Shown in pieces: positions 4,152-64,000 of a stretch of DNA of 64,000 bases; positions within the stretch are counted from its first letter, which is position 1; every line of letters begins with the position of its first letter. The position numbers and the translations under genes were made by a program. The notes under the pieces are model-generated. The model had not been told where the DNA came from. It did not search any database and was given only the letters and a program-made list of their open reading frames with translations. Where the stretch lies: the NCBI RefSeq assembly GCF_058153355.1, contig NZ_CM177019.1. One strand, given 5' to 3'.

Positions 4152-5012
4152 TGTCTGAGAACCACAGGCTGGCAGCAGAAAACCAGCCCTGTGGTAAAAT
4201 ACAGTAATAGCGGCGTACATCAGGCACGCCGCTCACTCGTCCACAGATCATATACGTCATTATACTGCGCGATAACGGAGGGCTTCAGCACCCGGTCATT
4301 TCTGAGCGGGTATGAATACCATTGATGATGCGAAGCAGCCACGGGCAGAAACGTTCTTCACAACCAGGTGCCTCCATCTTCACTGCAGTCTGAATGTGCC
4401 GGCTTGTTATCCACCAGAAATGGTATGCTCCGGTACATGCATACCCCGGAGACTATAAACGCACTGAATCATAGCCTCCCACCTCAGCAGGAGGCAGTCA
4501 GCTTTCAGGCGGAAAAACGTTGCAGTTAAAGATCGTGAGAATCGCTGTTTCGTTGCATAGCAACCCGAACAGTTGTAGTGAAACATTTTACCTGCATCAG
4601 CACATGGTCAGGCGCCGTCTGTATGGCGTGGAATACTGATGTTTCGGCTGATGGCAAGCCTCATTCTCTGTGGAAACAGGGGCGCGCATTAGCTTCTCAA
4701 CCAGAGAGTGTCACAAAGACAAATATTGCTGAAAATCGCATTCATCGTTCAGGCGTGAATGCCCGGAGACAAAAGCCGCTGTCCACACAGTCCCCCTCTG
4801 ACCTGAACAAAAAGCATACACACAACAGGCTCACCTGACCCCGAAAAACCATAACTTCAGCAATACCAGTGACACCAGCACGTTACCTCAGTGCCACATC
4901 TTCAGACCGCGATCAATCTGAAATGTGACTATCGGGGCAATATCCCTGCTTTGTGGTACACGATAACCAGAAAACATCCCCTGAACCGCCAGCCAGAAAG
5001 ACTGGCCACAAA

Positions 5013-12214: not shown

Positions 12215-12874
12215 ATGAATCCGTCTGATGCCATTGAGGCAATTGAAAAACCGCTCTCCTCCCTGCCTTACTCACTTTCCCGTCACATCCTGGAACATCT
12301 GCGCAAACTCACCAGTCACGAACCCGTGCCTGGCATTATGGGTAAAAGCGGGGCCGGTAAATCCTCACTCTGTAATGCGCTGTTTCAGGGGGAGGTCACC
12401 CCGGTCAGTGATGTTCACGCCGGCACCCGGGAAGTGCAGCGCTTCCGTCTGAATGGCCATGGTCACAGCATGGTTATCACTGACCTGCCCGGGGTGGGCG
12501 AGAGCCGGGACAGGGATGCAGAGTATGAAGCCCTGTACCGTGACATTCTGCTCGAACTGGACCTGGTACTGTGGCTGATTAAAGCCGATGACCGTGCCCT
12601 GTCTGTGGATGAGTATTTCTGGCGACACATCCTGCACCGGGGACATCAGCGGGTACTGTTTGTGGTGATGCAGGCCGATAAAACGGAGCCCTGCCATGAA
12701 TGGGATATGGCCGGTATTCAGCCTTCTCCCGCAGAGGCACAGAACATTCGCGAAAAAACGGAGGCGGTATTCCGTCTGTTCCGGCCCGTACATCGGGTTG
12801 TTGCCGTATCGGCCCGCACCGGCTGGGAACTGAACCCGGTGGTGATGTACCAGGCTGTTGTTACAGATTTTTAA
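12215..12874 (+). CDS. yeeP: YeeP/YfjP/YkfA-family small GTPase (50S ribosome-binding GTPase-like)
   Basis: G1 motif GIMGKSGAGKSS and G3 motif DLPG; backbone gene of CP4-type elements; may be C-terminally shorter than YfjP. Confidence 0.65.
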   Translation: MNPSDAIEAIEKPLSSLPYSLSRHILEHLRKLTSHEPVPGIMGKSGAGKSSLCNALFQGEVTPVSDVHAGTREVQRFRLNGHGHSMVITDLPGVGESRDRDAEYEALYRDILLELDLVLWLIKADDRALSVDEYFWRHILHRGHQRVLFVVMQADKTEPCHEWDMAGIQPSPAEAQNIREKTEAVFRLFRPVHRVVAVSARTGWELNPVVMYQAVVTDF

Positions 12875-29454: not shown

Positions 29455-29530
29455 TGGCTCCTCTGACTGGACTCGAACCAGTGACATACGGATTAACAGT
29501 CCGCCGTTCTACCGACTGAACTACAGAGGA
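29455..29530 (-). tRNA. asnV: tRNA-Asn (GUU)
   Basis: 76-nt exact match to the E. coli tRNA-Asn sequence, with anticodon loop CUGUUAA and 3' CCA encoded. Confidence 0.97.
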
Positions 29531-29856
29531 ATCGTGTGAACGGGGCGCATATTAATGGCAGTGCATGGTGATGTCAAAGGGTGAAATGCATTTTTTTGTT
29601 TGTTTGCTGCCAATTTCAACAAAGTGGTGAGCTTTCAATCTTATTGGGTAATGAACCATCGTGGTGCATACCCTCCTTTTATAGGGCAGGTGAATGCGAC
29701 TGCAGATAAAAAGAGCCAATGACGAATCTATCATAATCTCTTATTTGACAGTTGGTTAGCTTGCGCATCAACGCCAAAATAGAACTGGCAAGCATCTTGC
29801 ATTCTGGTTGTAAGTAATGGCGGCACTTGGGCCGACTCTTAAAAACCGGAGGCAAC

Positions 29857-30774
29857 ATGAACTTCAGACGCCTGAAATACTTCGTAAAAATTGTAGATAT
29901 TGGTAGCCTGACCCAGGCTGCTGAAGTATTGCATATCGCACAACCAGCGCTCAGCCAGCAGGTTGCCACACTGGAAGGTGAGTTTAATCAACAACTTTTG
30001 ATTCGCACAAAACGGGGCGTTACGCCAACTGACGCCGGAAAAATTCTCTATACCCATGCGCGGGCCATTTTACGTCAGTGTGAGCAGGCCCAACTGGCGG
30101 TGCATAACGTTGGTCAGGCATTATCGGGGCAAGTCTCGATTGGCTTTGCGCCAGGAACCGCTGCGTCATCCATCACCATGCCCTTATTACAGGCGGTTCG
30201 CGCTGAATTCCCGGAGGTCGTTATCTATCTTCATGAAAATAGCGGTGCAGTGCTTAACGAAAAACTGATAAATCACCAACTCGATATGGCGGTGATTTAT
30301 GAGCATTCCCCTGTGGCTGGTGTATCCAGTCAGGCTTTACTGAAAGAAGATCTTTTCCTGGTAGGGACTCAAGATTGTCCGGGGCAAAGCGTTGATGTTA
30401 ATGCTATTGCGCAAATGAACCTCTTTCTTCCCAGTGATTACAGTGCTGTTAGACTTCGTGTTGATGAGGCTTTTTCCCTACGGCGACTCACGGCAAAAGT
30501 CATTGGTGAAATTGAGTCTATTGCCACGCTTACCGCAGCGATTGCCAGCGGCATGGGCGTTGCAGTATTACCCGAATCGGCCGCGCGTTCGTTATGTGGC
30601 GCAGTAAACGGGTGGATGTCACGCATTACCACACCTTCCATGAGTCTCTCTTTGTCATTAAATTTACCCGCCAGAGCGAACTTATCACCACAGGCACAGG
30701 CAGTGAAAGAGTTGTTAATGTCAGTGATGAGTTCTCCAGTGATGGAAAAAAGGCAGTGGCAATTGGTGAGCTAA
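29857..30774 (+). CDS. nac: LysR-type nitrogen assimilation regulator Nac
   Basis: 305-aa LysR-family protein with N-terminal HTH; GGAGG SD; recalled Nac sequence and K-12 synteny. Confidence 0.9.
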   Translation: MNFRRLKYFVKIVDIGSLTQAAEVLHIAQPALSQQVATLEGEFNQQLLIRTKRGVTPTDAGKILYTHARAILRQCEQAQLAVHNVGQALSGQVSIGFAPGTAASSITMPLLQAVRAEFPEVVIYLHENSGAVLNEKLINHQLDMAVIYEHSPVAGVSSQALLKEDLFLVGTQDCPGQSVDVNAIAQMNLFLPSDYSAVRLRVDEAFSLRRLTAKVIGEIESIATLTAAIASGMGVAVLPESAARSLCGAVNGWMSRITTPSMSLSLSLNLPARANLSPQAQAVKELLMSVMSSPVMEKRQWQLVS

Positions 30775-30875
30775 GCGTTATATCGGGATGGAATAAGATG
30801 CGGGTTTTTATTATTTGTTATGCCGGGCATTAGACTTTAACAATAACGGAAAATCTGAACTGCCCGGAGTTTACC

Positions 30876-31826
30876 GTGAATTTCCAACAACTAAAGATAA
30901 TCCGCGAGGCTGCACGTCAGGATTACAACCTGACAGAGGTTGCGAATATGCTTTTTACCTCACAGTCCGGCGTCAGCCGTCATATTCGGGAACTGGAGGA
31001 TGAACTTGGCATCGAAATATTTGTTCGACGAGGTAAGCGACTGCTGGGCATGACTGAACCGGGCAAAGCATTACTGGTCATTGCAGAACGTATTCTGAAT
31101 GAAGCCAGTAATGTTCGTCGGCTTGCAGACCTGTTTACCAACGATACGTCTGGCGTTCTCACTATTGCAACGACGCATACTCAGGCACGTTATAGTTTGC
31201 CAGAGGTCATTAAATCTTTTCGCGAACTTTTCCCGGAGGTTCGGCTCGAGCTAATCCAGGGGACGCCACAGGAAATTGCGACGTTGTTGCATAATGGTGA
31301 AGCTGATATTGGTATCGCCAGCGAGCGTTTGAGTAATGACCCGCAGCTCGTCGCCTTCCCGTGGTTTCGTTGGCACCATAGTTTGCTTGTTCCACTCGAT
31401 CATCCCTTGACGCAAATTACACCATTGACGCTGGAATCAATAGCGAAGTGGCCGTTAATCACTTACCGACAGGGGATTACGGGGCGCTCACGTATTGATG
31501 ACGCATTTGCCCGCAAAGGTTTGCTGGCAGATATTGTATTAAGTGCGCAGGATTCTGATGTCATTAAAACCTATGTTGCTCTTGGGCTTGGGATCGGAAT
31601 AGTTGCCGAACAATCCAGCGGTGAACAAGAGGAAAAGAATTTAATCCGCCTGGATACGCGGCATCTTTTTGATGCTAATACTGTCTGGTTGGGACTGAAG
31701 CGAGGACAACTTCAGCGTAACTATGTCTGGCGCTTTCTGGAACTTTGTAATGCAGGGCTTTCAGTTGAGGATATCAAGCGGCAGGTGATGGAAAACAGTG
31801 AAGAGGAAATTGATTATCAGATATAG
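30876..31826 (+). CDS. cbl: LysR-type regulator Cbl (CysB-like)
   Basis: 316-aa LysR-family protein; recalled Cbl sequence and synteny. Confidence 0.9.
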   Translation: MNFQQLKIIREAARQDYNLTEVANMLFTSQSGVSRHIRELEDELGIEIFVRRGKRLLGMTEPGKALLVIAERILNEASNVRRLADLFTNDTSGVLTIATTHTQARYSLPEVIKSFRELFPEVRLELIQGTPQEIATLLHNGEADIGIASERLSNDPQLVAFPWFRWHHSLLVPLDHPLTQITPLTLESIAKWPLITYRQGITGRSRIDDAFARKGLLADIVLSAQDSDVIKTYVALGLGIGIVAEQSSGEQEEKNLIRLDTRHLFDANTVWLGLKRGQLQRNYVWRFLELCNAGLSVEDIKRQVMENSEEEIDYQI

Positions 31827-31827
31827 C

Positions 31828-31856
31828 AAAAAGCCCGCTATAAAAGCGGGCTTTTC
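31828..31856. terminator. bidirectional rho-independent terminator between cbl and tRNA-Asn
   Basis: Hairpin AGCCCGC-TATAAA-GCGGGCT followed by TTTT. Confidence 0.8.
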
Positions 31857-31863
31857 AGAAATT

Positions 31864-31939
31864 TGGCTCCTCTGACTGGACTCGAACCAGTGACATACGG
31901 ATTAACAGTCCGCCGTTCTACCGACTGAACTACAGAGGA
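31864..31939 (-). tRNA. asnU: tRNA-Asn (GUU)
   Basis: 76-nt sequence identical to the other tRNA-Asn copies. Confidence 0.97.
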
Positions 31940-32099
31940 ATCGCTGTTGAGGCACATCTTAACGGCGAAAAATCTTTTGTCAAACCCGATTTTTAATTTT
32001 CCCAACTGTTTGCCGTTTCTATCAACAGTTTGTTGCATTTGCAGACAATTTGTTGGCGAAAATCTTTGCAGCTTTGCTGATTCTCCCTCATTATTTGAA

Positions 32100-33587
32100 A
32101 TGTGGTTTCACTTTCTGCAATTAAGGTCGGCTTTGAATATCTCCTCTGCTTTACGCCAGGTTGTTCACGGCACTCGCTGGCACGCTAAACGCAAGAGCTA
32201 CAAAGTGTTGTTCTGGCGCGAGATAACCCCGCTTGCTGTTCCTATCTTCATGGAGAATGCCTGTGTCCTGTTGATGGGGGTTCTGAGCACTTTTCTGGTC
32301 AGCTGGCTGGGAAAAGATGCGATGGCCGGCGTGGGATTGGCGGACAGCTTCAATATGGTCATTATGGCTTTTTTTGCTGCTATCGATCTTGGTACTACTG
32401 TCGTTGTGGCATTTAGTCTCGGTAAGCGGGATCGACGACGAGCGAGGGTGGCGACGCGGCAGTCATTGGTGATCATGACGTTGTTTGCCGTACTGTTGGC
32501 AACGCTTATTCATCATTTTGGCGAGCAAATTATTGATTTCGTCGCGGGTGATGCCACGACAGAAGTTAAAGCACTGGCGTTGACTTATCTGGAGCTGACG
32601 GTACTCAGTTATCCAGCAGCTGCCATCACTTTGATTGGTAGCGGGGCACTTCGTGGTGCAGGGAATACGAAAATACCGCTACTGATTAACGGTAGCCTGA
32701 ATATTCTTAATATTATTATTAGCGGCATATTGATTTACGGCCTTTTCTCCTGGCTGGGACTGGGATTTGTCGGGGCTGGGTTGGGGTTAACCATTTCTCG
32801 TTATATTGGCGCAGTGGCAATTTTGTGGGTGCTGGCGATTGGTTTTAATCCTGCGCTAAGGATTTCGTTAAAGAGCTATTTTAAACCGCTGAATTTTAGC
32901 ATTATCTGGGAAGTCATGGGGATTGGTATTCCCGCGAGTGTCGAATCAGTGTTATTTACCAGTGGTCGGTTATTAACCCAAATGTTCGTTGCCGGGATGG
33001 GGACCAGTGTTATTGCCGGAAATTTTATCGCGTTTTCAATTGCGGCTCTTATCAACTTACCCGGAAGTGCGCTCGGCTCTGCTTCTACGATCATTACAGG
33101 CCGAAGGTTGGGTGTAGGACAGATAGCGCAAGCAGAGATTCAGTTGCGGCATGTGTTCTGGCTTTCCACTCTTGGATTAACGGCCATCGCCTGGCTAACG
33201 GCTCCCTTTGCCGGGGTTATGGCATCGTTTTACACCCAGGATCCACAGGTTAAACATGTCGTTGTGATTCTGATTTGGCTAAATGCTTTATTTATGCCTA
33301 TTTGGTCTGCCTCATGGGTGCTACCCGCTGGATTTAAGGGTGCTCGCGATGCACGTTACGCCATGTGGGTTTCTATGTTGAGCATGTGGGGTTGCCGGGT
33401 TGTAGTCGGTTATGTGCTGGGAATCATGCTTGGCTGGGGTGTGGTTGGTGTCTGGATGGGAATGTTTGCCGACTGGGCTGTGCGGGCCGTGCTGTTTTAC
33501 TGGCGCATGGTTACTGGACGTTGGCTGTGGAAATACCCTAGACCTGAGCCGCAAAAGTGTGAAAAAAAGCCAGTTGTGTCGGAATAA
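32100..33587 (+). CDS. yeeO: MATE-family efflux transporter YeeO
   Basis: 495-aa polytopic membrane protein; start set at MWFHFLQ because the longer track ORF overlaps the tRNA gene. Confidence 0.85.
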   Translation: MWFHFLQLRSALNISSALRQVVHGTRWHAKRKSYKVLFWREITPLAVPIFMENACVLLMGVLSTFLVSWLGKDAMAGVGLADSFNMVIMAFFAAIDLGTTVVVAFSLGKRDRRRARVATRQSLVIMTLFAVLLATLIHHFGEQIIDFVAGDATTEVKALALTYLELTVLSYPAAAITLIGSGALRGAGNTKIPLLINGSLNILNIIISGILIYGLFSWLGLGFVGAGLGLTISRYIGAVAILWVLAIGFNPALRISLKSYFKPLNFSIIWEVMGIGIPASVESVLFTSGRLLTQMFVAGMGTSVIAGNFIAFSIAALINLPGSALGSASTIITGRRLGVGQIAQAEIQLRHVFWLSTLGLTAIAWLTAPFAGVMASFYTQDPQVKHVVVILIWLNALFMPIWSASWVLPAGFKGARDARYAMWVSMLSMWGCRVVVGYVLGIMLGWGVVGVWMGMFADWAVRAVLFYWRMVTGRWLWKYPRPEPQKCEKKPVVSE

Positions 33588-33687
33588 ACGACAAAGTGCA
33601 GATTATTTCAGCAAACGATTTCAAATTTAAAAAACAGGCTTTGACATTGTGGATGGGCGTCGCTAATATTCGCCTCGTTCTCACGAT

Positions 33688-33763
33688 TCCTCTGTAGTTC
33701 AGTCGGTAGAACGGCGGACTGTTAATCCGTATGTCACTGGTTCGAGTCCAGTCAGAGGAGCCA
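33688..33763 (+). tRNA. asnW: tRNA-Asn (GUU)
   Basis: 76-nt TCCTCTGTAGTTCAGTCGGTAGAACGGCGGACTGTTAATCCGTATGTCACTGGTTCGAGTCCAGTCAGAGGAGCCA. Confidence 0.97.
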
Positions 33764-39899: not shown

Positions 39900-47888
<7,989 letters not shown>

Positions 47889-48200
47889 GCTTACCTTCCC
47901 TGAACGAGCTAACATAAATGCGCCCTTTCTAGCACAGCGAAAAAATATAAATCCTGATAGCAATATGATTGAAAATTAATAACTTTTCGTTAAGCAGTTT
48001 TGGGTGTGAGTTGCAAGAGGGGAGACTACTGAATAACTCAAGTTTTATAATCGAGGGGAAAATGGTGATGGTGTCCATAGCAAAACGCCCTCAACCATAA
48101 AGATCGAGGGCGCTTAAGATGTCAAAAACCCGCTATCCGTTAAAAAGCAATGCTCAACTAAGGTCAGTGACATTGCGCTAAAAAGCGAATTTTTAGAATT

Positions 48201-53802: not shown

Positions 53803-54843
53803 TTCCCCGTGAAACCCGGGTCATCCAACCGGAAGAAGAATGCTGCCCGGCCTGTGGTGGCGGGCTCAGTCCTCTGGGATGTGATGTGTCAGAACAACTG
53901 GAGCTTATCAGCAGCGCCTTTAAGGTTATCGAAACACAACGTCCGAAACTGGCCTGTTGCCGGTGCGACCATATCGTGCAGGCTCCGGTGCCTTCAAAAC
54001 CCATTGCACGCAGTTATGCCGGAGCGGGGCTTCTGGCCCATGTTGTCGCTGGAAAATATGCAGACCATCTGCCGTTATACCGCCAGTCAGAAATATACCG
54101 TCGTCAGGGCGTGGAGCTGAGCCGTGCCACACTGGGGCGCTGGACAGGTGCTGTTGCTGAACTGCTGGAACCGCTGTATGACATCCTGCGCCAGTATGTG
54201 CTGATGCCCGGTAAAGTCCATGCCGATGATATCCCCGTTCCGGTCCAGGAGCCGGGCAGCGGTAAAACAAGGACTGCCCGGCTGTGGGTCTACGTTCGTG
54301 ATGACCGTAACGCCGGTTCGGAAATGCCTCCGGCGGTCTGGTTCGCGTACAGCCCGGACCGGAAAGGTATCCATCCACAGAATCATCTGGCCGGTTACAG
54401 CGGAGTGCTTCAGGCCGATGCTTACGGTGGTTACCGGGCGTTGTACGAATCCGGCAGAATAACGGAAGCCGCATGTATGGCTCATGCCCGGAGAAAAATC
54501 CACGATGTGCATGCAAGAGTGCCCACCGACATCACCACGGAAGCCCTGCAGCGTATCGGTGAACTGTATGCCATCGAGGCAGAGGTCCGGGGCTGTTCAG
54601 CAGAACAGCGTCTGGCGGCAAGAAAAGCCAGAGCCGCGCCACTGATGCAGTCACTGTATGACTGGATACAGCAACAGATGAAAACACTGTCGCGTCACTC
54701 GGACACGGCAAAAGCGTTCGCATACCTGCTGAAACAGTGGGATGCACTGAACGTGTACTGCAGTAATGGCTGGGTGGAAATCGACAACAACATCGCAGAG
54801 AACGCCTTACGGGGAGTGGCCGTAGGCCGGAAAAACTGGCTCT

Positions 54844-56667
54844 GTGTGTCACGAAGGAGTACTTATGGCAACAATGTGAAAATTGCAGCATAAGTTATCC
54901 ATGCTCTGAGGTGGGTGGAGGTGGGCCCTCCGGTCAGGGTTTACAGGAGCACTGACCAAACGACCCGGTGCTGCTTCATTCTAAGGAATGAGGTGGTGAG
55001 CGACTCGGGAAAAGGCAGAGATCTACTGTCACGTGGGGTTCGGGAAGCTGAACGAAAGTAAACTGTCCGATGAAGCATCGAAATCTTAGATGATGTCAAA
55101 ATGGGGCCGTACAGCCGTCCCCTGATAAGCGCAGAAGACACCTGCTTACTGACTGCGCGGCATCCGGTGTGAAGGCAGCAGGATCCCGGGCCAGACCATC
55201 TCAGGGAACGTGAGAACCTGTTTCCGGCACGTATCGGGAAACAGGGGCGGACCCATTCGTAGTAGTGATGAAAGATCTGTAATGGGTCTGGAGCGAAGGG
55301 ATGGGGATCACATTCATTGCAGAAGACACAACCCAAAAGGGGATGACGTAACTGATGCAACGAAAATCATTTGAAATACCAAAAGCACTGGTCTGGGCAT
55401 CATATCTGGATGTGCGTCGCAACAAGGGAGCCCCCGGATGCGACGGGCAGACTTTGAAAATGTTCGACCAGCAACGTGATGGCAATCTATACAAGATCTG
55501 GAACCGGCTATGTTCGGGAACATGGTTTCCGCCACCAGTGCTGGAAAAACGGATCCCGAAGTCGAATGGCAAGGAACGCATTCTGGGGATCCCAACAGTA
55601 TCCGATCGAATTGCTCAGGGAGCGATAAAACTTTTCATGGAAGAAAAGCTTGACCCGATTTTCCATGCTGATTCATATGGTTACCGACCAGGCAAATCAG
55701 CTCATGACGCTCTGAAACAATGTGCCATCCGGTGCTGGCGTTATAGCTGGATACTGGAAGTGGACATCAGTGCGTTTTTCGACCATGTGAGACATGATCT
55801 GGTGCTCAAAGCTCTGGAACACCACGGGATGCCTAAATGGGTCATCCTGTACTGTCGACGCTGGATGGAAGCGCCAATGCAGAGTTGTGAAAATGGAGAA
55901 TTAATAACCCGAACACGAGGCACTCCGCAGGGCGGGGTCATTAGTCCACTACTTGCTAACTTGTTCCTTCACTATGCATTTGATTTGTGGATGGAAAGAG
56001 AATATCGGGGGGTACCGTTTGAGAGGTACGCTGACGATATTGTAGTACATTGTTCACGAATGAGTGATGCAACAAGGCTGAAGAACAGGTTATCGGAGCG
56101 CTTCTCGGAAGTCGGGCTGGTCCTGAATGCAGGGAAAACGAATATCGCCTACATTGACACGTTTAAAAGGAGAAACGTCGCAACGAGTTTCACCTTTCTC
56201 GGATATGACTTCAAAGTGCGTACGCTGAAGAATTTCAAAGGCGAACTGTACCGAAAATGCATGCCGGGTGCGTCAAATGCAGCAATGCGCAAAATAACAG
56301 AAACAATCAAGAAGTGGCGTATACATCGCTCAACAGCTGAGAGTTTGCTGGATTTTGCGAGGCGCTACAATGCGATAGTGAGAGGCTGGATCGAGTACTA
56401 CGGAAAGTTCTGGTCCAGAAATTTCAACTATCGACTGTGGAGTGCAATGCAGTCACGTCTGCTCAAGTGGATGCAGTCTAAATACAGACTTTCGAACCGG
56501 AAGGCTCAGCGAAAGCTGACGCTGGTAAGGAAGGAGTATCCGAAGCTATTTGTTCACTGGTATTTACTACGTGCATCAAATGAGTGATCAAGAGCCGTAT
56601 GACGCGAGAGTGTCACGTACGGTTCCGTGAGCAGCCGGGGAGTGAAATTCTCTCCGGCTGACTCGAC
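54844..56667 (+). mobile_element. bacterial group II intron (1824 bp) in sense orientation within IS66 tnpC
   Basis: Starts GTGTG immediately after the exon 1 homology and ends ...AC before exon 2; domain V-like GAGCCGTATG...CACGTACGGTTC at 56592..56625; contains the RT/maturase ORF. Confidence 0.75.
55355..56587 (+). CDS. group II intron reverse transcriptase/maturase (no endonuclease domain evident)
   Basis: RT motifs including GTPQGGVISPLLANLFL and YADDIVVH, plus a maturase X domain (RGWIEYYG); 410 aa. Confidence 0.85.
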   Translation: MQRKSFEIPKALVWASYLDVRRNKGAPGCDGQTLKMFDQQRDGNLYKIWNRLCSGTWFPPPVLEKRIPKSNGKERILGIPTVSDRIAQGAIKLFMEEKLDPIFHADSYGYRPGKSAHDALKQCAIRCWRYSWILEVDISAFFDHVRHDLVLKALEHHGMPKWVILYCRRWMEAPMQSCENGELITRTRGTPQGGVISPLLANLFLHYAFDLWMEREYRGVPFERYADDIVVHCSRMSDATRLKNRLSERFSEVGLVLNAGKTNIAYIDTFKRRNVATSFTFLGYDFKVRTLKNFKGELYRKCMPGASNAAMRKITETIKKWRIHRSTAESLLDFARRYNAIVRGWIEYYGKFWSRNFNYRLWSAMQSRLLKWMQSKYRLSNRKAQRKLTLVRKEYPKLFVHWYLLRASNE

Positions 56668-56852
56668 TCGCAGGTTCCGACAGCGGTGGCGAACATGCGG
56701 CGGTGTTGTACTCGCTGATCGGCACATGCCGTCTGAACAATGTGGGGCCAGAAAAATGGCTGCGTTACGTCATTGAGCATATCCAGGACTGGCCGGCAAA
56801 CCGGGTACGCGATCTGTTGCCCTGGAAAGTTGATCTGAGCTCTCAGTAAATA

Positions 56853-58796
56853 TCAATACGGTTCTGGCGAGCCGCTTACGTTTAATCGGGAAATCTCATA
56901 TTTTCGGTTCATCATTAATGGCAGAAGGAAGCGTTGATGCTGTTGACGAGAAATTTCACCAGCACGGAGCAGTTTTTCTAGGTTGCGTAACTGGAAACCC
57001 GCATGCGCCATATCATCATTGTTCTCTGTATTGGCCTGAAAAGCGGAAAAGTAATAATGCCGTGATTCCAGCAAATATAAACAGGTCAGATCCATATTTT
57101 TGCCAGATTCAGGCAGGCTGAAATCCAGATTCACACCATTCGTCGCAGAGGCGGTCTGAGTCAGCACAATGACAATACGCCGGGAGGCAAATGCGGCCTG
57201 ATAAGCATCACTAAAGCCCTTTTTCTTCTGACATTCTGCGGTTAACAGACAAATCAGCGCAGGCTCATTATGTATGCTCACTGGGATAAACACATCAGCA
57301 AAATTTTTTAGTAGAGGATCATCAGATAAAGGTTGTTCCATTTTTAACCATGCGAGGTATTCTCTACTTTGTGTTGCTATTGTAGTGGTAAGCCATTTTC
57401 TTAAATAGGCTATGGAATTCACGAAAGCAAGATGCCCCCGGTGTTGAGGTCTTTTTCCCGCAAGATCCAATACATTAAGCAATTTTAGCAGTATATTTTT
57501 TCGATATTCTGATTCGAAATCTGATGAGGGGTCATCGCCATTCTGGAAAAAATCGGGGGCTAGCGAAGCGAGCAGATCAACACAATGCGGGTTATTCTTT
57601 ATGCTATTGAAATCTTGAATCTCAGCATTCAGTTGTGTGTTTCTGATATTTTCTTTGCTGTTATTGATCTCTTCAATAGCTAAATACTGCAACTGGAAAT
57701 CATCAGCCGTCTGGACATAAGGTATCGGTTCTTTAAACCACTCGACAGGTCGTTTTTCAAAAGTTGTTCCCAGAAAACTTTGTGTAACAGCAGGGTTGCG
57801 TGCTTCTGCAATATAACGAAGAGCTGAATTAATCCACCGGACATCGAAGTGATTACAGGCTCTTTCAATATATGACGTAGCCGACAGTGCAAAGACAAGA
57901 TTACGACTGGCGAGAGAAAGCAGCAGACCTTCTGCCGTCGTGGGCAGAAAGGCACGTTTGATCTGTATCCGTAACGGATCGATATCCGTATCTGAGACAT
58001 TCTGTTTCAGCAACCAATTGGTCAAGCCAAAAATACTGGCATGAGTATTTGGCAAAATATTACTTTTCCTTAATTCCCGTAGTTCCGGCAGGTCAGTACG
58101 CGGTAACAAAAATCGGGACATATTGGGCAGGGTTGAGCCGTAGTATGAAGGCCTGTAATCATTAACGGGGTCGAACAGAAGTCGGGTTAACTTTTTAATG
58201 TATTCATACGCTTCATCTTCACTTGCAGTCAGGTCGGTCAACATTAGGCTAAACTGTCGAATGAATTTTTCCATCAAGCGTAAAAAATCACTGATGTCGA
58301 TAGTCTGATCGCTATCCTGAAGCGGAGAGTCTGGCCTGATAATTTCGTATCCATGTTCCGCTTTCCGCATAATAAGCCGTTCACTGGTCACCAGTTGATC
58401 GGAACGGAATAAATAATGCTCACCAAAGGGTTTATTATCCAGATATTGCTGAAGAGGAATAACCAGCGATCTGGCATGTGTTAAATCAGCATGTTTTTCT
58501 GTTAATGCACTATCCAGATCATTAATAAATTTTTCTAGACGTTCACGGATCATAGGTGCAGGTTCCATTTCAACATACTGCATACGTTGTAGTAATCTGC
58601 GTCCCCCGTCGAGCAACTGACCCAGACACTCAGGTGGTTCCTGAACCCATTGCGCCTGTGCCAGATACTCTTGTAATACCTCAGACTGGTAATCAAATTC
58701 ATCGATGAAAATGATGTAATTACGCAGCTCTTTGCTGGACATTTTTACTTTGCGACGCCCATCGTAAAACGATGAAACCATCTTTTGAGTCGTCAT
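56853..58796 (-). CDS. large hypothetical protein; C-terminal 8 codons and stop supplied by the IS66 terminus
   Basis: 647-aa ORF; N-terminal IIFIDEFD resembles a Walker B / DExx motif; the last codons (SGSPEPY) are encoded within the IS66 right inverted repeat. Confidence 0.5.
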   Translation of the reverse strand: MTTQKMVSSFYDGRRKVKMSSKELRNYIIFIDEFDYQSEVLQEYLAQAQWVQEPPECLGQLLDGGRRLLQRMQYVEMEPAPMIRERLEKFINDLDSALTEKHADLTHARSLVIPLQQYLDNKPFGEHYLFRSDQLVTSERLIMRKAEHGYEIIRPDSPLQDSDQTIDISDFLRLMEKFIRQFSLMLTDLTASEDEAYEYIKKLTRLLFDPVNDYRPSYYGSTLPNMSRFLLPRTDLPELRELRKSNILPNTHASIFGLTNWLLKQNVSDTDIDPLRIQIKRAFLPTTAEGLLLSLASRNLVFALSATSYIERACNHFDVRWINSALRYIAEARNPAVTQSFLGTTFEKRPVEWFKEPIPYVQTADDFQLQYLAIEEINNSKENIRNTQLNAEIQDFNSIKNNPHCVDLLASLAPDFFQNGDDPSSDFESEYRKNILLKLLNVLDLAGKRPQHRGHLAFVNSIAYLRKWLTTTIATQSREYLAWLKMEQPLSDDPLLKNFADVFIPVSIHNEPALICLLTAECQKKKGFSDAYQAAFASRRIVIVLTQTASATNGVNLDFSLPESGKNMDLTCLYLLESRHYYFSAFQANTENNDDMAHAGFQLRNLEKLLRAGEISRQQHQRFLLPLMMNRKYEISRLNVSGSPEPY

Positions 58797-58798
58797 GA

Positions 58799-59572
58799 TC
58801 AGCAGGTGTTGCTTTTCGTCACGCCAGGCAATGGCGGGCAGAATGCGCCTGACCCAGACGTGGCGACGGAAATCTGCAACTCGTTGCCTGGCTTGGCTGC
58901 CTGCGTGAGTTCATGTTCTTCGCCATATTTTTCTTTTTGTTTCTTGGCTTCTTTTTCCAGCAATTTGATATTCTGAATCAGAGTTATCTCCACCGCTGCG
59001 CATGATTTGATTAATGACTCTTTCTCACTGGCGATGGCCGTCTGAAAACGCGTCGGATATCCTTTCAGCGATTTGTTAATATGCAGTATGTTTTTGCAAT
59101 TTCTACGCAATTTGTCGGCGATATCCTGAATGGCAAACAAATTTCTGTCTTCCAGGATATTGATGGAGTCAAATGGATCGGGAAGTGAGTCTGCGGAAAT
59201 ATTATTCTCATGAGGCAAGGGGGTGGCCTCGATGGCAGAAACGATCTGTTCATCTTGTGCATAGAGCACGCTGACGGTGAATGGTTCCCCGTTACTGTCT
59301 TTATGCGCTGCCGTTTTCTCATAAATGTCGTGCAAAATATTCCAGCGATGGGTAACCAGAATGGCTTGAGAGCCTGATTTTTTTATCGTCTCCAGCGCCG
59401 GGAGAGCGTTATCGGCATAGCCAGAGCGGTAGAGTGAGCTGGTTTTTCCGCTACCCGTAGGCCCCTGAAGCTGACAAAATCCTGCGATACGACGGGATGT
59501 TTTGGATTTTTTTGCCTGAGAAAGGGTGTATTCAATAACGGCATTGTAGGAACGTATTAAAGGGGCACTCAC
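58799..59572 (-). CDS. P-loop NTPase (helicase motif I-like GPTGSGKT)
   Basis: 257-aa ORF with Walker A GPTGSGKT; stop lies 2 nt before the ATG of the downstream 647-aa ORF. Confidence 0.5.
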   Translation of the reverse strand: MSAPLIRSYNAVIEYTLSQAKKSKTSRRIAGFCQLQGPTGSGKTSSLYRSGYADNALPALETIKKSGSQAILVTHRWNILHDIYEKTAAHKDSNGEPFTVSVLYAQDEQIVSAIEATPLPHENNISADSLPDPFDSINILEDRNLFAIQDIADKLRRNCKNILHINKSLKGYPTRFQTAIASEKESLIKSCAAVEITLIQNIKLLEKEAKKQKEKYGEEHELTQAAKPGNELQISVATSGSGAFCPPLPGVTKSNTC

Positions 59573-60075
59573 ATTTCACCTCATCCGTGTCAGGTTATCG
59601 AAGAGTAGAATTTCAGCAAATTCATGTTACACCGAACGGGTATCATTTCAATGTTTAATAATAATTTCCCCTTATAAAACAACGCTTATAATACATTCGC
59701 AGGTCAGATGATTTATCGGTGTGTTATTTGTTTGAATTTGGTGTTGTGGTTTTCTTTTTTTAACAATCTTCGATCTTCCTTCCACGACTTCCCCTTGCCG
59801 TTTTCAACCGAAAGCGGTATCTTTCACTTGCACCTGCAAAATCAGGTGCCGGGATTGGAACCCCGAAATGTAACCATACTGGCGACACGTGACGCGTCTG
59901 CGTCTTTTTTTATGTCGCGCGCTTAGCTACACCAAAATTATGGTGGGCTGGGCGGGGGCACCGTAAGGTGCGCCGGTTCCAGTATGGCCGGTAGTTCCAA
60001 CCTCGTTCAGTCCACCACCCATGAGATTGGAACCTCTGGTGGTGGTTTTCAAACCACATACTGGAGGCTGCCTTT

Positions 60076-60543
60076 ATGGCTACGATCCCCACTCAGACAC
60101 ACCCGTTACTTGCTGTTCCCTTCAATGCTGCCACAGATTTTACCGTACTGGCAGACCACTGTGAAAACTTCGCCGAAACCCTGATCGAAAGCGACGACCC
60201 GGTGCTGCGGCTGGCGCTTTGCGGGCGGCTTGCCGCCTGTCTGACTCTGCTGCAACCCACGCTGAACGAACCCATCCCGTCCCATCTGACTGACAGCCTG
60301 ACCGTTGATGCTCTACCTGCCGATATGCCCCGATTTGTCCCCGACGCTGAATTACTTTGTGACTACTCACTGACGCTGGCGCAACTTCTTATCGGGCAGG
60401 GGATGCTGCCAAAAATGGAGCAGACGATAACTGGCTTATTATGTGAACTGGTCTGGTATTTTGCCGCTGAAATGAAAGCCCCGCGTTGGCTGCGTACTGC
60501 CGGTGGCGTGAAGTTTATCGATGGTGTGGAGGCCAAAGCATGA
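60076..60543 (+). CDS. hypothetical protein (155 aa)
   Basis: GGAGG SD; stop overlaps the ATG of the Ner-like gene (ATGATG/TGA). Confidence 0.55.
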   Translation: MATIPTQTHPLLAVPFNAATDFTVLADHCENFAETLIESDDPVLRLALCGRLAACLTLLQPTLNEPIPSHLTDSLTVDALPADMPRFVPDAELLCDYSLTLAQLLIGQGMLPKMEQTITGLLCELVWYFAAEMKAPRWLRTAGGVKFIDGVEAKA

Positions 60544-60746
60544 TGCAGTCTGACTGGCATCCTGCCGACATTATCGCCGGGCTGAAAAAACGTGGCACTT
60601 CGCTGTCAGCGCTTTCGCGTCAGGCTGGGCTGGCGTCCTCCACGCTGGCTAATGCGCTTACCCGCCGCTGGCCCAAAGGTGAAAGATTGATTGCCGAAGC
60701 GTTAGATGTTGCGCCTGAGAACATCTGGCCTTCGCGCTATCGCTGA
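60540..60746 (+). CDS. Ner/Nlp-like DNA-binding regulator
   Basis: 68-aa product; WHPADIIAGL...STLANAL...WPKGE...IWPSRY matches the Ner/Nlp family from recall. Confidence 0.75.
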   Translation: MMQSDWHPADIIAGLKKRGTSLSALSRQAGLASSTLANALTRRWPKGERLIAEALDVAPENIWPSRYR

Positions 60747-61093
60747 TGTCCTTCCGGCGCAGCCACGATACGGAAGCTGCGCCGCATTTCGTTTATCTGA
60801 TTTGTCATAATCCTTTGAACCGCAAAAACAGTTTTCTATTATCGGCCTTCTTACCACGAACTAAGCTCCCGCCTGTACAAAATGCTTCATGACCTGAAAG
60901 AAGCGCCTGATGTATCAGGATGGTCGCCGTTTTACCGGCAATGCCGCCTTTGAAAACTGCCGGATCTGTCCTTCGATGGATTAAGGCTTTCTTCATACTT
61001 TATTACGCTAAGGAAATCACAATGAATCTGATGAATAATTGTGCATCGCCTGCCGTAGATGTTATATTAAAATATAATATTCGGAGGTGCTCT

Positions 61094-61351
61094 ATGTATA
61101 CAACTCGCCTGAAAAAGGTCGGCGGATCCATCATGCTGGCGGTTCCCCCCGCCGTGCTGAAAACGCTGGAGCTGTCGACGGACAGCGAAGTGGGTATGAC
61201 CATTGATAATGGCTGCCTGATTATTGAACCCCAGAAACGGCCCCGTTATTCGCTTGAGGAGCTGTTGGCGCAGTGCGATCCGCACGCAGAAATGAGCGAA
61301 GAGGATCGGGAATGGATTGATGCGCCTGCGGTGGGCAAGGAGATCCTGTAA
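61094..61351 (+). CDS. pemI: PemI-like antitoxin (AbrB/MazE fold)
   Basis: GGAGGTG SD; 85-aa product closely resembling recalled PemI (TTRLK.VGGS.ML.VPPA...SL.ELLAQCDP). Confidence 0.85.
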   Translation: MYTTRLKKVGGSIMLAVPPAVLKTLELSTDSEVGMTIDNGCLIIEPQKRPRYSLEELLAQCDPHAEMSEEDREWIDAPAVGKEIL

Positions 61352-61684
61352 ATGGACAGAGGGGAAATCTGGCTGGTTTCACTGGATCCGATTGCAGGTC
61401 ACGAGCAAAGCGGAAAACGTCCGGTGCTTATCGTATCGAAGGCATCGTTTAACAAGCTGACCCGGCTACCCGTTGTTGTTCCCGTTACCAGCGGTGGAAA
61501 CTTCGCCCGTGCAGCCGGTTTTACCGTCTCACTGGACGGTGCGGGAACAAAAACAACGGGCGTTATTCGCTGCGACCAGCCCAGAACCATTGATATGGGA
61601 GCCCGGAGCGGAAAGCGACTGGAACGTATACCCGATGCTGTCGTGAATGAAGTGCTGGCCCGACTGGAGGCCATTCTGAGCTGA
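61352..61684 (+). CDS. pemK: PemK-like mRNA interferase toxin (MazF/PemK family)
   Basis: 110-aa product starting immediately after the pemI stop; RGEIWLVSLDP...GKRPVLIVS pattern. Confidence 0.85.
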   Translation: MDRGEIWLVSLDPIAGHEQSGKRPVLIVSKASFNKLTRLPVVVPVTSGGNFARAAGFTVSLDGAGTKTTGVIRCDQPRTIDMGARSGKRLERIPDAVVNEVLARLEAILS

Positions 61685-61702
61685 TGCTTTTTATGTAAAC
61701 TG

Positions 61703-61740
61703 AATGATGGCGCTGTCATATACAGCGCCATCATTTTTTA
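61703..61740 (+). terminator. rho-independent terminator after pemK
   Basis: 14-bp stem AATGATGGCGCTGT / ACAGCGCCATCATT with 5-nt loop, followed by TTTTTTA. Confidence 0.8.
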
Positions 61741-62122
61741 TAACGACAAGTGATTAAAAAATCCTTTTGCAGGTAAAAACAGTTTTTCCTTTCTCCGCCA
61801 GCGGTACTGGCATAGTCTCCCCCTTGCCCTATGCTGTCGTTGACAGCGCCACGCTTCACAACCTGAAAGAAGCGCCTGTTATCAGGAGGTTGAGCCCTTT
61901 ACCGGTGCAGACCTTTGCAAACACCGGGTCGCAGAACATCGCGACGGAGGCCAGAGTTTTAACACGATACGTCCTTTTACTGCGCCAGCCTGCTGGTCTG
62001 AATCTGCCCCGCGCCGGAATTTTCCCGGTCAGCTTATATTTGCTGACACCCTCAGCACCTTTTACCTCACGGGCTGCGGCATGCATTTGCCGCAAGGCAT
62101 TTGCTGACGCGTGCCCGTAAAA

Positions 62123-62244
62123 CTGCACCAGACGGTAAATTTTCAGACGCTGCACCAGACCCGTGCGTCACTTTAACCGCGCAGAGCGGGAAAGTGACGC
62201 ACGCAATCCCTTTCGACCTGCACCAGAAAACTCAACTGCGCCAG
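62123..62244 (+). repeat. cluster of 4 CTGCACCAG(AC) motifs upstream of the recombinase gene
   Basis: Copies at 62123, 62150, 62218 and (CTGCGCCAG) 62236; a 12-bp-arm palindrome GTGCGTCACTTT / AAAGTGACGCAC at 62163..62202 lies between them. Confidence 0.7.
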
Positions 62245-62535
62245 CTCACGGCTGGAGTCTGACACCGCCTTTTCAGGCCATTTACCTATAAGGAGAACAT
62301 GAATCGATACCGAGGCGGATCCGGACGATCCGGGGGATAACCCGCGCAAGCGGGCGGCTGCTCAGAGAGCACAACCGAAGCCCCACCACACCTCAACGGC
62401 TGCCGCCCCGGCGCTCAGGTATCGTTCGCAGCCCCGACAAAAAAACAGGGGCTATCGGCCTGTGCGCCGGGGAAAGCTGTATCAGTGTTGGTTTTTTGGG
62501 GGATGAGTTTGCGGCAATCATGAAAAGGGGAATGT

Positions 62536-63423
62536 ATGGGGATACTGGAGCAGGAAATGACGCGACTGGCGCAGCAGGCGGGTGGCAGCTACAAAACTGT
62601 GGATGACCGCATCAGGCTGGCGCAGCGGTTTTGTGAGCGTCTGGTTCTGGCGCAGAACGTACAAATCCGCCGGGTGGAGCAGCTTAAGGCGCGGCATATT
62701 GAAGGCTATGTTCGTGAACGGCTGGCGCAGGGCATCACAAAGCGTTCCCTGCAAAATGAGATGGCGGCGGTGCGCTGCATTCTGAAACAGGCCGGGCGTG
62801 ACAGGCTGGCGCAGAGTGAGCGGCTGAATAACCGCTCGCTGGGATTGTCCGGAGCATCCCGTAACGGGACGAAGCTGGCTATTACACTGGAGCACTATCG
62901 TGATGTGCTGGAGACCGCCCGCGTAAAAGATCCGGGGCTGGCGGCAGCGCTGGAGCTCTCAAGGTTGATGGGATTACGTTCGCAGGAGGCGGTGCAGAGT
63001 GTACAGTCGCTGAAAACGTGGATACAGGCGCTGGAGCGTGGTGAGTCCCGGTTAACCGTGGTGTTCGGCACCAAAGGCGGACGGCCCCGCGAGACGATTA
63101 TTCTTGATGCTGGCGTAGTTAAAAAAGCGCTGGATAATGCGCTGGTGGTGGCTGAGGATCGTCACGGCAGGCTGATAGATAAGCCCGATCTGAGAAGCGC
63201 GATGAAATACTGGCACAGCCAGGCGTCGGGTCTTGGTTTAACTGGCGCATATTCCCCGCACTCGTTGCGCTATGCCTGGGCGCAGGATGCTATTCGTCAT
63301 TATCTGGCGCAGGGATTTTGTGAGAAGGAAGCGCTGGCGATGACGGCGATGGATTTGGGTCACGGCGACGGGCGCGGGCGGTATGTGGCGCAGGTTTACG
63401 GGCGAAAGGGGGATGCTGATTGA
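62536..63423 (+). CDS. tyrosine recombinase (phage-integrase family, 295 aa)
   Basis: Box I-like TKGGRPRETII and box II-like HSLRYAWA...LGHGDGRGRYVAQVY (catalytic Tyr); no N-terminal arm-binding domain evident. Confidence 0.75.
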   Translation: MGILEQEMTRLAQQAGGSYKTVDDRIRLAQRFCERLVLAQNVQIRRVEQLKARHIEGYVRERLAQGITKRSLQNEMAAVRCILKQAGRDRLAQSERLNNRSLGLSGASRNGTKLAITLEHYRDVLETARVKDPGLAAALELSRLMGLRSQEAVQSVQSLKTWIQALERGESRLTVVFGTKGGRPRETIILDAGVVKKALDNALVVAEDRHGRLIDKPDLRSAMKYWHSQASGLGLTGAYSPHSLRYAWAQDAIRHYLAQGFCEKEALAMTAMDLGHGDGRGRYVAQVYGRKGDAD

Positions 63424-63466
63424 TAGCTTCAGACTTGCAATATGATGTTATTCATCGTTTTCCGTA

Positions 63467-63562
63467 CAAAATTATTTGCCTCAAATAATTTTGGGTGATT
63501 TCCTATTAATCCCGGGTTATTCATCGTTATTCACCGAAAAAATTTCTACGTAGAAATTTTTT
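63467..63562. promoter_or_regulatory. two perfect palindromic operator-like sites (12-bp arms with 3-bp spacer; 13-bp arms, no spacer) with associated direct repeats
   Basis: CAAAATTATTTG-CCT-CAAATAATTTTG at 63467..63493 and AAAAAATTTCTAC/GTAGAAATTTTTT at 63537..63562; TTATTCATCGTT direct repeat at 63449 and 63518. Confidence 0.6.
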
Positions 63563-63618
63563 GTTCGATTTCCTCTCAATAAAAATGCTTCTGAACGGTA
63601 TGGCCTATTAACAGGCCT

Positions 63619-63881
63619 CTGGTGCAGTATTACGGTATTTTACTGATGATTGCGCCAGCAAAAGGAAAAGGCCAAATAATGGTAAAGGGCGACTAAGGGT
63701 AACAGCGCCAGACCGGAAAGGGCCAAAAGGCTAAAAGGCCTTAACACTGGCGCAGTTTGATGTTTATCCAATAATATCTGGCGCAGTCCTGACATAGACA
63801 GGTGACAGCGGACTGGTGCAGTAAATGGTGACATTGAACTGGTGCGGATACGATGTATTGGGAAATCAGTTTCTGGTGCAG
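63619..63881 (+). repeat. array of 6 direct CTGG(T/C)GCAG motifs downstream of the recombinase gene, inverted relative to the upstream cluster
   Basis: Copies at 63619, 63747, 63778, 63813, 63839 (CTGGTGCGG) and 63873; spacings 26-35 bp for the last five. Confidence 0.7.
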
Positions 63882-63906
63882 ATTATCTGGCAGCTATCGT
63901 CTGGAG

Positions 63907-64000
63907 ATTATTCACTGTGAATAATTTTCGTTATTTGCCTATTGATTCATAATATATTGATAGGTTTTCGTACAAAATTATTCTACGTCGAATAATTTTG
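63907..64000. promoter_or_regulatory. further palindromic sites at the window edge
   Basis: ATTATTCAC-T-GTGAATAAT at 63907..63925 and CAAAATTATTC-TACGTC-GAATAATTTTG at 63973..64000; the half-site resembles the 63467 palindrome. Confidence 0.5.

Follow-up and report, generated by a model that had tools for sequence, protein, structure and literature searches.

The two RNAs of the closest described systems, IsrK, which equals the seqA RNA of P4, and C4, which equals the P4 CI RNA, have been named together the 'IsrK-C4 immunity system' in the literature (PMC3632133; PMC4825925). The immunity region of P4 consists of the PLE promoter, seqA, the CI RNA, seqC and the first ORF of the left operon, and the parts of the locus described below stand in the same order. 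The immI region of P1 and P7 comprises a1, b1, c4, a2, b2, icd and ant and shares with our locus a recognition by two segments, with two sites on each side of C4. In the curated GenBank record of P1, promoters, a1, b1, a 77-nt c4 RNA, a2, b2 and icd are marked, along with the note 'repression of icd ant translation'. Biere et al. are said to have found in 1992 that the translational block in P1 also ends in Rho-dependent polarity. The isrK - STnc1160/orf45 - anrP locus of Gifsy-1 presents an IsrK with a leaky terminator, then a processed C4-like RNA and then a regulated gene, which is also the succession proposed here. IsrK of Gifsy-1 is complementary to the downstream RNA, binds Hfq and, through partial read-through of its terminator, has a long isoform; its effect, shown by experiment, is activation via the uORF orf45 (PMC4825925). 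Finally, in the records of APSE-7 and APSE-8, phages of Hamiltonella, an sRNA of the isrK family, one of the C4 family and putative a'/b' segments are marked upstream of a Bro-N gene, in an arrangement like that of our locus.

Our analysis of a 64,000-nt stretch of DNA (contig NZ_CM177019.1, hereafter the window) revealed a divergent intergenic region of 503 bp at 59573-60075, in agreement with the length of about 500 bp given by an earlier reading made from the letters of the DNA (hereafter the sequence-only reading). This region very probably constitutes a complete P4/P1-type IsrK-C4 RNA immunity cassette, which stands before an operon of two genes in a genomic island of E. coli. Our computations show the assignment to families, the folds, a three-way complementarity supported by co-variation, the overlap with the Shine-Dalgarno (SD) sequence and the conserved geometry; how C4 is processed, whether the operon is repressed or activated, the occurrence of polarity and what IsrK does at this locus we infer by analogy with P1, P4 and Gifsy-1. 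All RNA features, sites and genes described below lie on the plus strand.

The sequence-only reading had pointed to a palindrome, a weak terminator-like hairpin and two repeated motifs between the divergent genes, and all of them were recovered by inspection of the sequence. The palindrome CACCTG-CAAAAT-CAGGTG occupies 59831-59848, its stem being extended beyond the earlier description by one further pair, G59830-C59849, and the hairpin GACGC-GTCT-GCGTC lies at 59891-59904, is followed by seven T at 59905-59911 and was also picked up by a terminator scan. The motif ATTGGAACC is present at 59854-59862 and 60026-60034, its only two copies in the whole 64-kb window (0.62 expected), and CATACTGG is present at 59875-59882 and 60057-60064, with five copies across the window against 1.83 expected. 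The sequence-only reading overlooked that each motif recurs a third time, as a reverse complement located between the direct copies, namely CCAGTATGG at 59979-59987 and GTTCCAA at 59994-60000. In shuffles of the 249-nt stretch 59830-60078, a direct/inverted/direct 8-mer arose in 10-33 of 20,000 cases and a direct/inverted/direct 7-mer in 173-361 of 20,000, with four of the latter, from two separate motifs, being present in the real sequence. The arrangement of the repeated motifs is not due to chance.

An Rfam scan of positions 57000-64000 of the window assigned the upstream part of the region to the IsrK family (RF01394; 59830-59910, 71.1 bits against a cut-off of 50, E 3.5e-14, model positions 1-77 of 77). 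The match includes the terminator, and the proposal of a small RNA ending at this terminator, near 59911, was thus supported, although the RNA at 59830..59911 would measure about 82 nt and not the 100-200 nt that had been anticipated. It is the counterpart of the P4 'seqA' RNA and carries a1 and b1 sites of the P1 type; a second family, c4-a1b1 (RF03163), overlaps the IsrK match at 59817-59869 with 45.2 bits, 1.5 bits short of its cut-off of 46.7 (E 3.7e-09). Along with the score above the cut-off, the IsrK-like RNA displays the two 5' hairpins and the Rho-independent terminator of its family, and its fold has a z-score of -2.53. Hairpin 1 (59830-59849) is the palindrome, with double-sided changes in 6 of its 7 pairs, and hairpin 2 (59850-59865) is followed by the terminator. 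The loop of hairpin 2 presents the target site a1 (AUUGGAAC, 59854..59861), which is complementary to the bulge a' of C4 and has a predicted opening cost of 0.0 kcal/mol. The target site b1 (CCAUACUGG; CCATACTGG) at 59874..59882 is complementary to the apical loop b' of C4 at 9 of 9 positions, and the b1-b' duplex is predicted at -13.9 kcal/mol. By eye, no alternative anti-terminator structure involving b1 was seen.

The intrinsic terminator of the IsrK-like RNA (59891..59911) consists of a 5-bp stem, a 4-nt loop and U7, with a predicted hairpin energy of -7.5 kcal/mol; across 17 cassettes its T-run is invariant and its stem is 85.5% paired. Since this terminator is weak, it is probably leaky and lets transcription read through into C4. 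Read-through of the homologous terminator of Gifsy-1 has been demonstrated experimentally (PMC4825925). Upstream, a putative sigma-70 promoter at 59795..59823 combines a -35 element TTGCCG (59795-59800), a 17-nt spacer and a -10 element TATCTT (59818-59823), and would place the start of transcription at about G59830. It is absent from the list produced by the promoter scan because it matches the consensus at only 8 of 12 positions; in 14 of 14 compared cassettes, a -35/-10 pair keeps one and the same spacing to the start of the IsrK model. We infer from these sequences that the promoter at 59795-59823 drives the cassette.

The IsrK-like RNA sits directly upstream of C4, on the same strand, at a gap of 25 nt and is complementary to it. 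The stretch taken for a GC-rich leader by the sequence-only reading contains this C4-family antisense RNA at 59936..60022, the family of P4 CI RNA and Salmonella STnc1160, which was recognized both by Rfam (RF01695; 83.2 bits against a cut-off of 45, E 8.4e-16, model positions 1-87 of 87) and by its fold. The architecture comprises a long closing stem, a hairpin capped by GUAA and a second hairpin with an 11-nt loop, at a minimum free energy of -48.2 kcal/mol and a z-score of -5.55, with none of 200 shuffles folding as well. In the 17 cassettes, pairing of the closing stem reaches 100%, 5 of its pairs show double-sided changes, and all 5 pairs of the inner hairpin co-vary. By analogy with the 77-nt C4 of the P1 record, mature C4 would extend from about 59942 to about 60017-60020. 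Two of its segments carry the complementarity. The 11-nt apical loop b' (UUCCAGUAUGG, 59977..59987) pairs through CCAGUAUGG with CCAUACUGG, matching b1 and b2 at 9 of 9 positions at both sites, and the 8-nt single-stranded bulge a' (AGUUCCAA, 59993-60000) pairs with a1 and a2, its GUUCCAA being complementary to both copies of ATTGGAAC at 7 of 7 positions at both sites and the pairing being extendable into CCUCG, up to 60005. Hence a' and b' are complementary to sites both upstream (a1, b1) and downstream (a2, b2) of C4, as is characteristic of the family.

The downstream site a2 (AUUGGAACC, 60026..60034) lies a few nucleotides 3' of C4, in the position that a2 has in the P1 record. The site b2 (CAUACUGGA, 60057-60065) overlaps the SD sequence GGAGG (60063-60067) of the first downstream ORF, which encodes 155 aa and starts at 60076, and its distance of 10 nt to the ATG is that between b2 and icd in P1. 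An interaction prediction between 59760-59911 and 59940-60075, which had been suggested as a check on the proposed pairing of small RNA and leader, yielded duplexes of -13.9 and -7.8 kcal/mol. This proposal was supported, as the strong co-variation across homologues described below marks the motifs as base-pairing determinants. The two copies of each motif cannot pair mutually because they are identical, and their partner is a third RNA, C4.

A local leader hairpin at 60033..60067, in which an anti-SD segment (CCUCUGG...) is paired with b2 and the SD sequence, is predicted at -19.6 kcal/mol, with an opening cost of 9.5 kcal/mol for b2 and a z-score of -3.07 for the leader fold. Binding energies of C4 were obtained from segment duplexes plus opening energies; RNAduplex runs of whole C4 against the targets were discarded, as they gave unrealistic full-length duplexes. 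The net energies amount to -7.5 and -4.4 kcal/mol at the IsrK sites versus -0.4 and +1.2 kcal/mol at the leader, and the predicted equilibrium gain is about -12 kcal/mol on IsrK versus about 0 on the leader. Almost no net gain is obtained at the leader because b2 and the SD sequence are buried in the predicted local hairpin. According to these models, C4 would need to bind co-transcriptionally, or the local hairpin may itself be the main or a second lock; the imbalance in binding energies makes a decoy role of IsrK plausible.

The pairing scheme was evaluated in an alignment of 17 sequences (12 phages and 5 islands), in which pairs were counted for a structure that we specified. The structure was taken from one of the aligned sequences, which introduces some bias in its favour, and the double-sided changes far exceed this bias. 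Changes on both sides were found in 6 of 7 pairs of helix a1-a' (98.3% of cells paired), 7 of 9 pairs of b1-b' (98.0%), 7 of 9 pairs of b'-b2 (93.3%) and 4 of 5 pairs of a'-a2 (92.8%). Overall, 97.1% and 95.7% of cells were paired in two runs, values that dropped to 37-47% when the partners were slid by 1-3 columns and were reached in none of 500 shuffles. The longest run of b'-b2 measured 9.1 nt for cognate versus 4.6 nt for non-cognate cassettes. In the parts extracted from the compared cassettes, a1, a' and a2 vary in concert, and so do b1, b' and b2; the a types comprise AUUGGAAC, AUUGGCGU, AUUGGUCU, UUUGAGAC, AUUUGCAC, UCGCAG and CGUGGAAA, and there is almost one b type per cassette. In the sister island of E. 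coli EC28, the a type is kept and b1, b' and b2 are all altered, to UGUUACAGG / CCUGUAAC. This joint change means that pairing is under selection within the lineage of the islands. More widely, the cassette (59830 to about 60093) is conserved at about 70-75% identity in more than 220 phage records, among them phiP27, Stx phages, phages of Salmonella, Hafnia and Yersinia, and APSE, and among the phage matches listed the adjacent genes are mostly annotated as antirepressor-type (Ant, Rha or Bro). In all 13 related loci that were fetched, Rfam placed IsrK before C4 at a distance of 22-25 nt.

The operon headed by the cassette consists of the 155-aa ORF (60076-60543) and a Ner/SfsB-like HTH_35 gene (60540-60746; 112.7 bits), which overlap by ATGA. 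The operon is followed by PemI/PemK, EFASI and an Integrase_1 gene. In Rfam, a weak STAXI match and a strong EFASI match lie 2 kb downstream of the cassette; Weinberg et al. (PMC2864571) reported STAXI motifs in the neighbourhood of c4 RNAs. For the 155-aa protein, 411 homologues were found across Enterobacterales, with identities of up to 98%, and no match to a described family. It is modelled as a bundle of four helices whose structural neighbours are all generic, and neither family nor structure searches recognized an antirepressor in this ORF. The cassette precedes a gene of the 155-aa type in every context examined. A core composed of a P4-type integrase at a tRNA gene, sometimes Integrase_1, HTH_35, a 153-aa gene and the cassette recurs in the islands of EC28, PSUO2, Klebsiella and Dickeya, and the cargo beyond the cassette differs among islands (AbiE/TacAT/DUF4747; type I RM with DarTG; truncated GajA with two large unknown proteins). 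The island in the window is decaying: it carries a group II intron, beside which the divergent 1300-aa cargo gene is split into 257 and 647 aa, and in sister strains ISEc1 is inserted inside the IsrK gene.

Among 5426 complete E. coli genomes, 25 carry the specificity type of the window, in all cases without annotation. A 41-mer megablast of this type gave no match in 50,697 phage records, and exact 28-mer and 21-mer scans of IMG/VR returned one contig, L019, in which the island-type gene lies beside Mu-like tail genes. A 14-mer scan produced chance matches, and among the matches listed only L019 has a C4. Cross-talk with phages of the same specificity was dropped after the 28-mer, 21-mer and 41-mer scans had given only L019.

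By analogy with P1, P4 and Gifsy-1, C4 likely represses the operon of the 155-aa and Ner-like genes, and IsrK is likely its second target or a decoy. A single promoter at about 59795-59823 would initiate transcription at about G59830, and many transcripts would end at the weak terminator (59891-59911), yielding the IsrK-like sRNA of about 82 nt that displays a1 and b1. Read-through RNA would carry C4 (59936-60022), which may be excised as a stable RNA of about 77-80 nt, as RNase P does in P1, and would expose the loop b' (CCAGUAUGG) and the bulge a' (GUUCCAA). Pairing of a' and b' with a2 and b2 immediately downstream, the latter lying over the SD sequence, would block translation of the 155-aa ORF, and the overlapping Ner-like gene would be silenced as well, via coupling or Rho-dependent polarity. 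In addition, a1 and b1, whether carried by IsrK or by the nascent transcript, may be bound by the same segments of C4, which would result either in autoregulation, as in the P4 model, or in a decoy effect that relieves repression when the short IsrK is abundant, as in the Gifsy-1 model. A simple transfer of these prototype models is complicated by the predicted hairpin that locks the SD sequence and by the counterpart of the orf45/'Ash' uORF required in the Gifsy-1 model, which has 8 codons here, running from an ATG at 59940 to a TAA at 59964 out of frame with the 155-aa ORF. The uORF has only 8 codons because its TAA lies in the GUAA tetraloop.

Several other explanations of the region were weighed. 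That the repeats are chance matches or a REP-type element, the latter having been named by the sequence-only reading as a finding that would speak against its proposal, has a next to negligible probability. The short length of the repeats is all that fits such an origin, and against it stand the rarity of the arrangement in shuffles, the confinement of ATTGGAACC to its two sites in 64 kb and the fact that the motifs differ between homologues and yet always match the loops of the cognate C4. A dispersed REP element was ruled out, as Rfam gave only IsrK, c4-a1b1 and C4 in the region and the scan contained no REP-family match. It is also very improbable that the stretch encodes an 'Ash family protein' and that the repeats are incidental. 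A CDS of this name is called by PGAP over the homologous stretch in E. coli EC28, translations of homologues match Pfam PF10554, and 8 of 14 cassettes contain a long ORF that shares the frame of the downstream gene. However, early stops occur in four cassettes and the ORF is out of frame in six, so that frame and length vary among homologues, and the substitutions keep base pairs and not codons. The PF10554 matches span exactly the C4 RNA and leader, and the founding member of the family is the historical P4 'cI' ORF, which indicate that PF10554 is largely a conceptual translation of C4/CI RNA and leader. Membership of the window ORF in the Ash family was rejected, since its frame stops at codon 9, after the 8 codons of the uORF. 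More substantial, although still quite improbable, is the view that a P4-like element has decayed and left the cassette behind as an inert remnant that regulates nothing. The degraded state of the island, with its 1300-aa gene split beside the group II intron, the ISEc1 within the IsrK gene of sister strains and the lack of P4 replication or hijacking genes agree with such a fate. By contrast, every part of the cassette is intact, as is the 155-aa ORF, which has homologues of up to 98% identity; the complementarity reaches 9/9 and 7/7 at both sites, and the EC28 island changed b1, b' and b2 in a coordinated manner.

The remaining alternatives concern the mode of action of the cassette. One of them, in which pairing of C4/CI on the nascent transcript mainly causes premature Rho-dependent termination after loss of translation, as opposed to simple occlusion, is a tentative contender that we hold to be less likely than not. 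In sequence detail (promoter, terminator context and first codons) our cassette is nearest to P4, P4-type integrases are found in the island family, and the P4 literature cited in PMC4825925 and PMC3632133 supports this mode. On the other hand, neither a terminator nor a rut site was identified downstream of b2, the spacer of 107 nt in P4 compares with 25 nt in the window, and sequence alone does not separate this mode from a translational block. According to the other alternative, which we regard as possible but doubtful, the long read-through RNA cannot by itself be translated, and activation comes from the short IsrK-like sRNA, which acts in trans by pairing with the C4 region or by refolding the leader; the cassette would then be mainly an ON switch and not a repressor, a mode that is compatible with an IsrK-C4 cassette heading the operon. 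Direct experiments on the homologous Gifsy-1 locus (PMC4825925), the far better accessibility of the IsrK sites to C4 than of the leader sites in the net energies given above and the SD sequence locked in the predicted local hairpin point in this direction. Such activation requires translation of orf45 through C4 and coupling, whereas the uORF of the window is 8 codons long and out of frame, and b2 still overlaps the SD sequence as in P1, where C4 is the repressor. Our preferred reading remains a complete IsrK-C4 cassette upstream of a regulated two-gene operon.

The locus is an ordinary, unannotated example of the known IsrK-C4 system, with a specificity type of its own and an unusual downstream operon, and it leaves the understanding of the system unchanged. 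A P4/P1 RNA immunity cassette is seen here in a non-phage setting, preceding a conserved operon in islands with defence cargo across Enterobacterales, and the comparison of 17 cassettes provides a clean natural example of modular three-site co-variation setting antisense specificity. The practical value lies in annotation, as the locus is without annotation in the 25 E. coli genomes and its EC28 homologue is labelled 'ash family protein'. A bolder reading, which we consider unlikely, would make the IsrK-C4 cassette the only lysogeny-type switch of small tRNA-integrated islands (those with a P4-type integrase, a Ner-like HTH, a conserved four-helix protein of 153-155 aa and variable defence cargo), the 155-aa/Ner pair a new kind of effector and the a x b types an RNA 'immunity code'. 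If this were true, the pair might be, for example, an excision inducer or a helper-phage antirepressor, and the specificity types might stop cross-talk among co-resident phages, satellites and islands, or let an island sense a matching helper.

Among the known systems, P4 is the one that the locus resembles most in sequence detail. P4 itself scores 60.8 bits for IsrK and 74.9 bits for C4 in Rfam, thus representing the same families, and the promoters are homologous, with TTGCCT...TATAGT upstream of seqA in P4 and TTGCCG...TATCTT in the window. Common to both are the terminator context GGCGACA-N-GACGCG and the SD/start region GGAGGCUGCC...AUGGCUAC; the first codons are alike (MATTLT in P4, MATIPT in the window), and the integrases of the window's island family are of P4 type at tRNA genes, as in P4. 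The two differ in the distance between IsrK and C4 (107 nt in P4, 25 nt here), in the a/b specificity, which is CGUGAGAA / AUUCACAGG in P4, and in the downstream genes, which are a short first ORF, epsilon and primase in P4 and the genes of the 155-aa four-helix protein and the Ner-like HTH here. A relationship of the 155-aa protein to P4 ORF151, which is of similar length, was rejected (BLASTP E 0.14, hhalign probability 0.1%). None of the P4 core genes (alpha primase, sid, psu, delta, epsilon) was found at 54000-64000 of the window or in the islands of EC28, PSUO2, Klebsiella and Dickeya, and the island is not a P4 satellite, since it is without the P4 genes for replication and capsid hijacking, although its cassette would work like that of P4.

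With Gifsy-1, the likeness of the parts is accompanied by a different output, which there is an antirepressor followed by AntQ, genes that were not found at our locus, and by a mechanism that needs translation of orf45 across the C4 region, unlike the uORF of only 8 codons found here. The APSE cassettes stand in a phage context with the specificity UUUGAGAC / CUAACAAGG, while that of the window stands in an island and has another specificity. P1 shares the C4 family with the window (68.8 bits for C4 and 51 bits for c4-a1b1 in Rfam). Its upstream part, however, reaches 35.1 bits on the IsrK model, below the cut-off, with a terminator less canonical than that of the window, a C1 operator lies over the c4 promoters of P1 and none is evident at our locus, and P1 regulates icd and ant in place of the 155-aa and Ner-like genes. 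The spacing of the sites in P1 is nearly that of the window, with a2 a few nucleotides after C4, b2 22-23 nt past a2 and the start codon 10 nt past b2. Furthermore, relatives with differing specificity types are known from the heteroimmunity of P1 and P7 (PMC12197685), and the family to which the cassette of the window belongs is alike in this respect.

The leader of the 155-aa gene is predicted to fold into a 15-bp hairpin (60033-60067, -19.6 kcal/mol), in which an anti-SD segment, CCUCUGG, is paired with the leader site b2 and the Shine-Dalgarno sequence. Counterparts of this hairpin, of the form CCUCC/UUUCC...GGAGG, are visible in most of the lambdoid cassettes. The opening codons of the regulated ORF (60076-60105 in the window; 8366-8330 in the comparison sequence L020) are also alike in P4, phage and island cassettes despite the unrelated genes that follow, reading MAT-I/T/V-P/L-T, with an additional ..HP.. 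in the first codons of P4 and the islands. Since these first codons are shared across unrelated genes, the homology of the cassette reaches about 20-30 nt into the ORF, after which the genes diverge.

On the other side of the cassette, the divergently transcribed cargo gene is whole in the sister islands of E. coli PSUO2 and EC28, where it spans 3.9 kb and codes for a protein of 1300 aa without family matches. The copy in the window is broken into ORFs of 257 and 647 aa (region 55355-59572), and homology to the cargo gene stops near 56879, adjoining a group II intron reverse transcriptase/maturase (55355-56587). The homology shared by PE164-type E. coli and the window begins at position 59757, roughly 40 nt before the -35 element, and this position looks like the recombination boundary that separates the variable cargo from the conserved cassette.

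LF82/PSUO2-type E. coli carries an ISEc1 element (window 59853-59864; 5981-7271 in L022, the PSUO2 sequence) exactly within the IsrK-like gene, in its a1 hairpin, flanked by a 12-bp target duplication, GATTGGAACCCC. With this element in place, b1, the terminator, the C4 RNA and the 155-aa gene are cut off from the promoter and hairpin 1, a natural knock-out of the cassette promoter.

The C4/CI RNA and its leader, conceptually translated, appear to be what the Pfam family PF10554 (Phage_ASH) represents. In 153-aa homologues whose N-terminus is over-extended, the family matches residues 1-56, and it also matches the historical 'cI' ORF of P4 (59.7 bits) and the protein of EC28 annotated by PGAP as 'ash family protein'. 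Phage_ASH-related stretches lie at 59940-59966 in the window, at 12304-12600 in the comparison sequence L001 and at 8171-8584 in L020; the window reading frame of this type ends after MVGWAGAP.

In EC28 and PSUO2, the same type of island, with a P4-type integrase, occupies one of the three tRNA-Asn genes that flank nac, cbl and yeeO (29455-33763 in the window). The island of the window is located about 25 kb from these genes, past an ORF of 2687 aa (39900-47963), and presumably sits at a different asn tRNA that lies outside the window. A PemI/MazE-like antitoxin and PemK/MazF-like toxin pair (61097-61684) lies downstream of the Ner-like gene and is followed by a weak STAXI match (61832-61902; 25.5 bits, under the cut-off) and a strong EFASI RNA match (62299-62428; 119.2 bits, cut-off 51.2), both just upstream of an Integrase_1/Phage_int_SAM_2 gene (62536-63423). 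The only IMG/VR contig with the exact C4 loops of the window, IMGVR_UViG_2924896205_000008 (region 3599-4312), carries the same 155-aa gene, adjoining Mu-like Gp48, tail-fibre and tail-fibre-assembly genes; its neighbouring cargo is a HEPN (LA2681-like) gene.

The loop of IsrK hairpin 1 (59837-59842), CAAAAU in the window, is conserved among the 17 aligned cassettes, with two invariant A residues, but has no pairing partner within the cassette. The corresponding loop is GCAAAUU in P1 and GCAAAAUC in P4.
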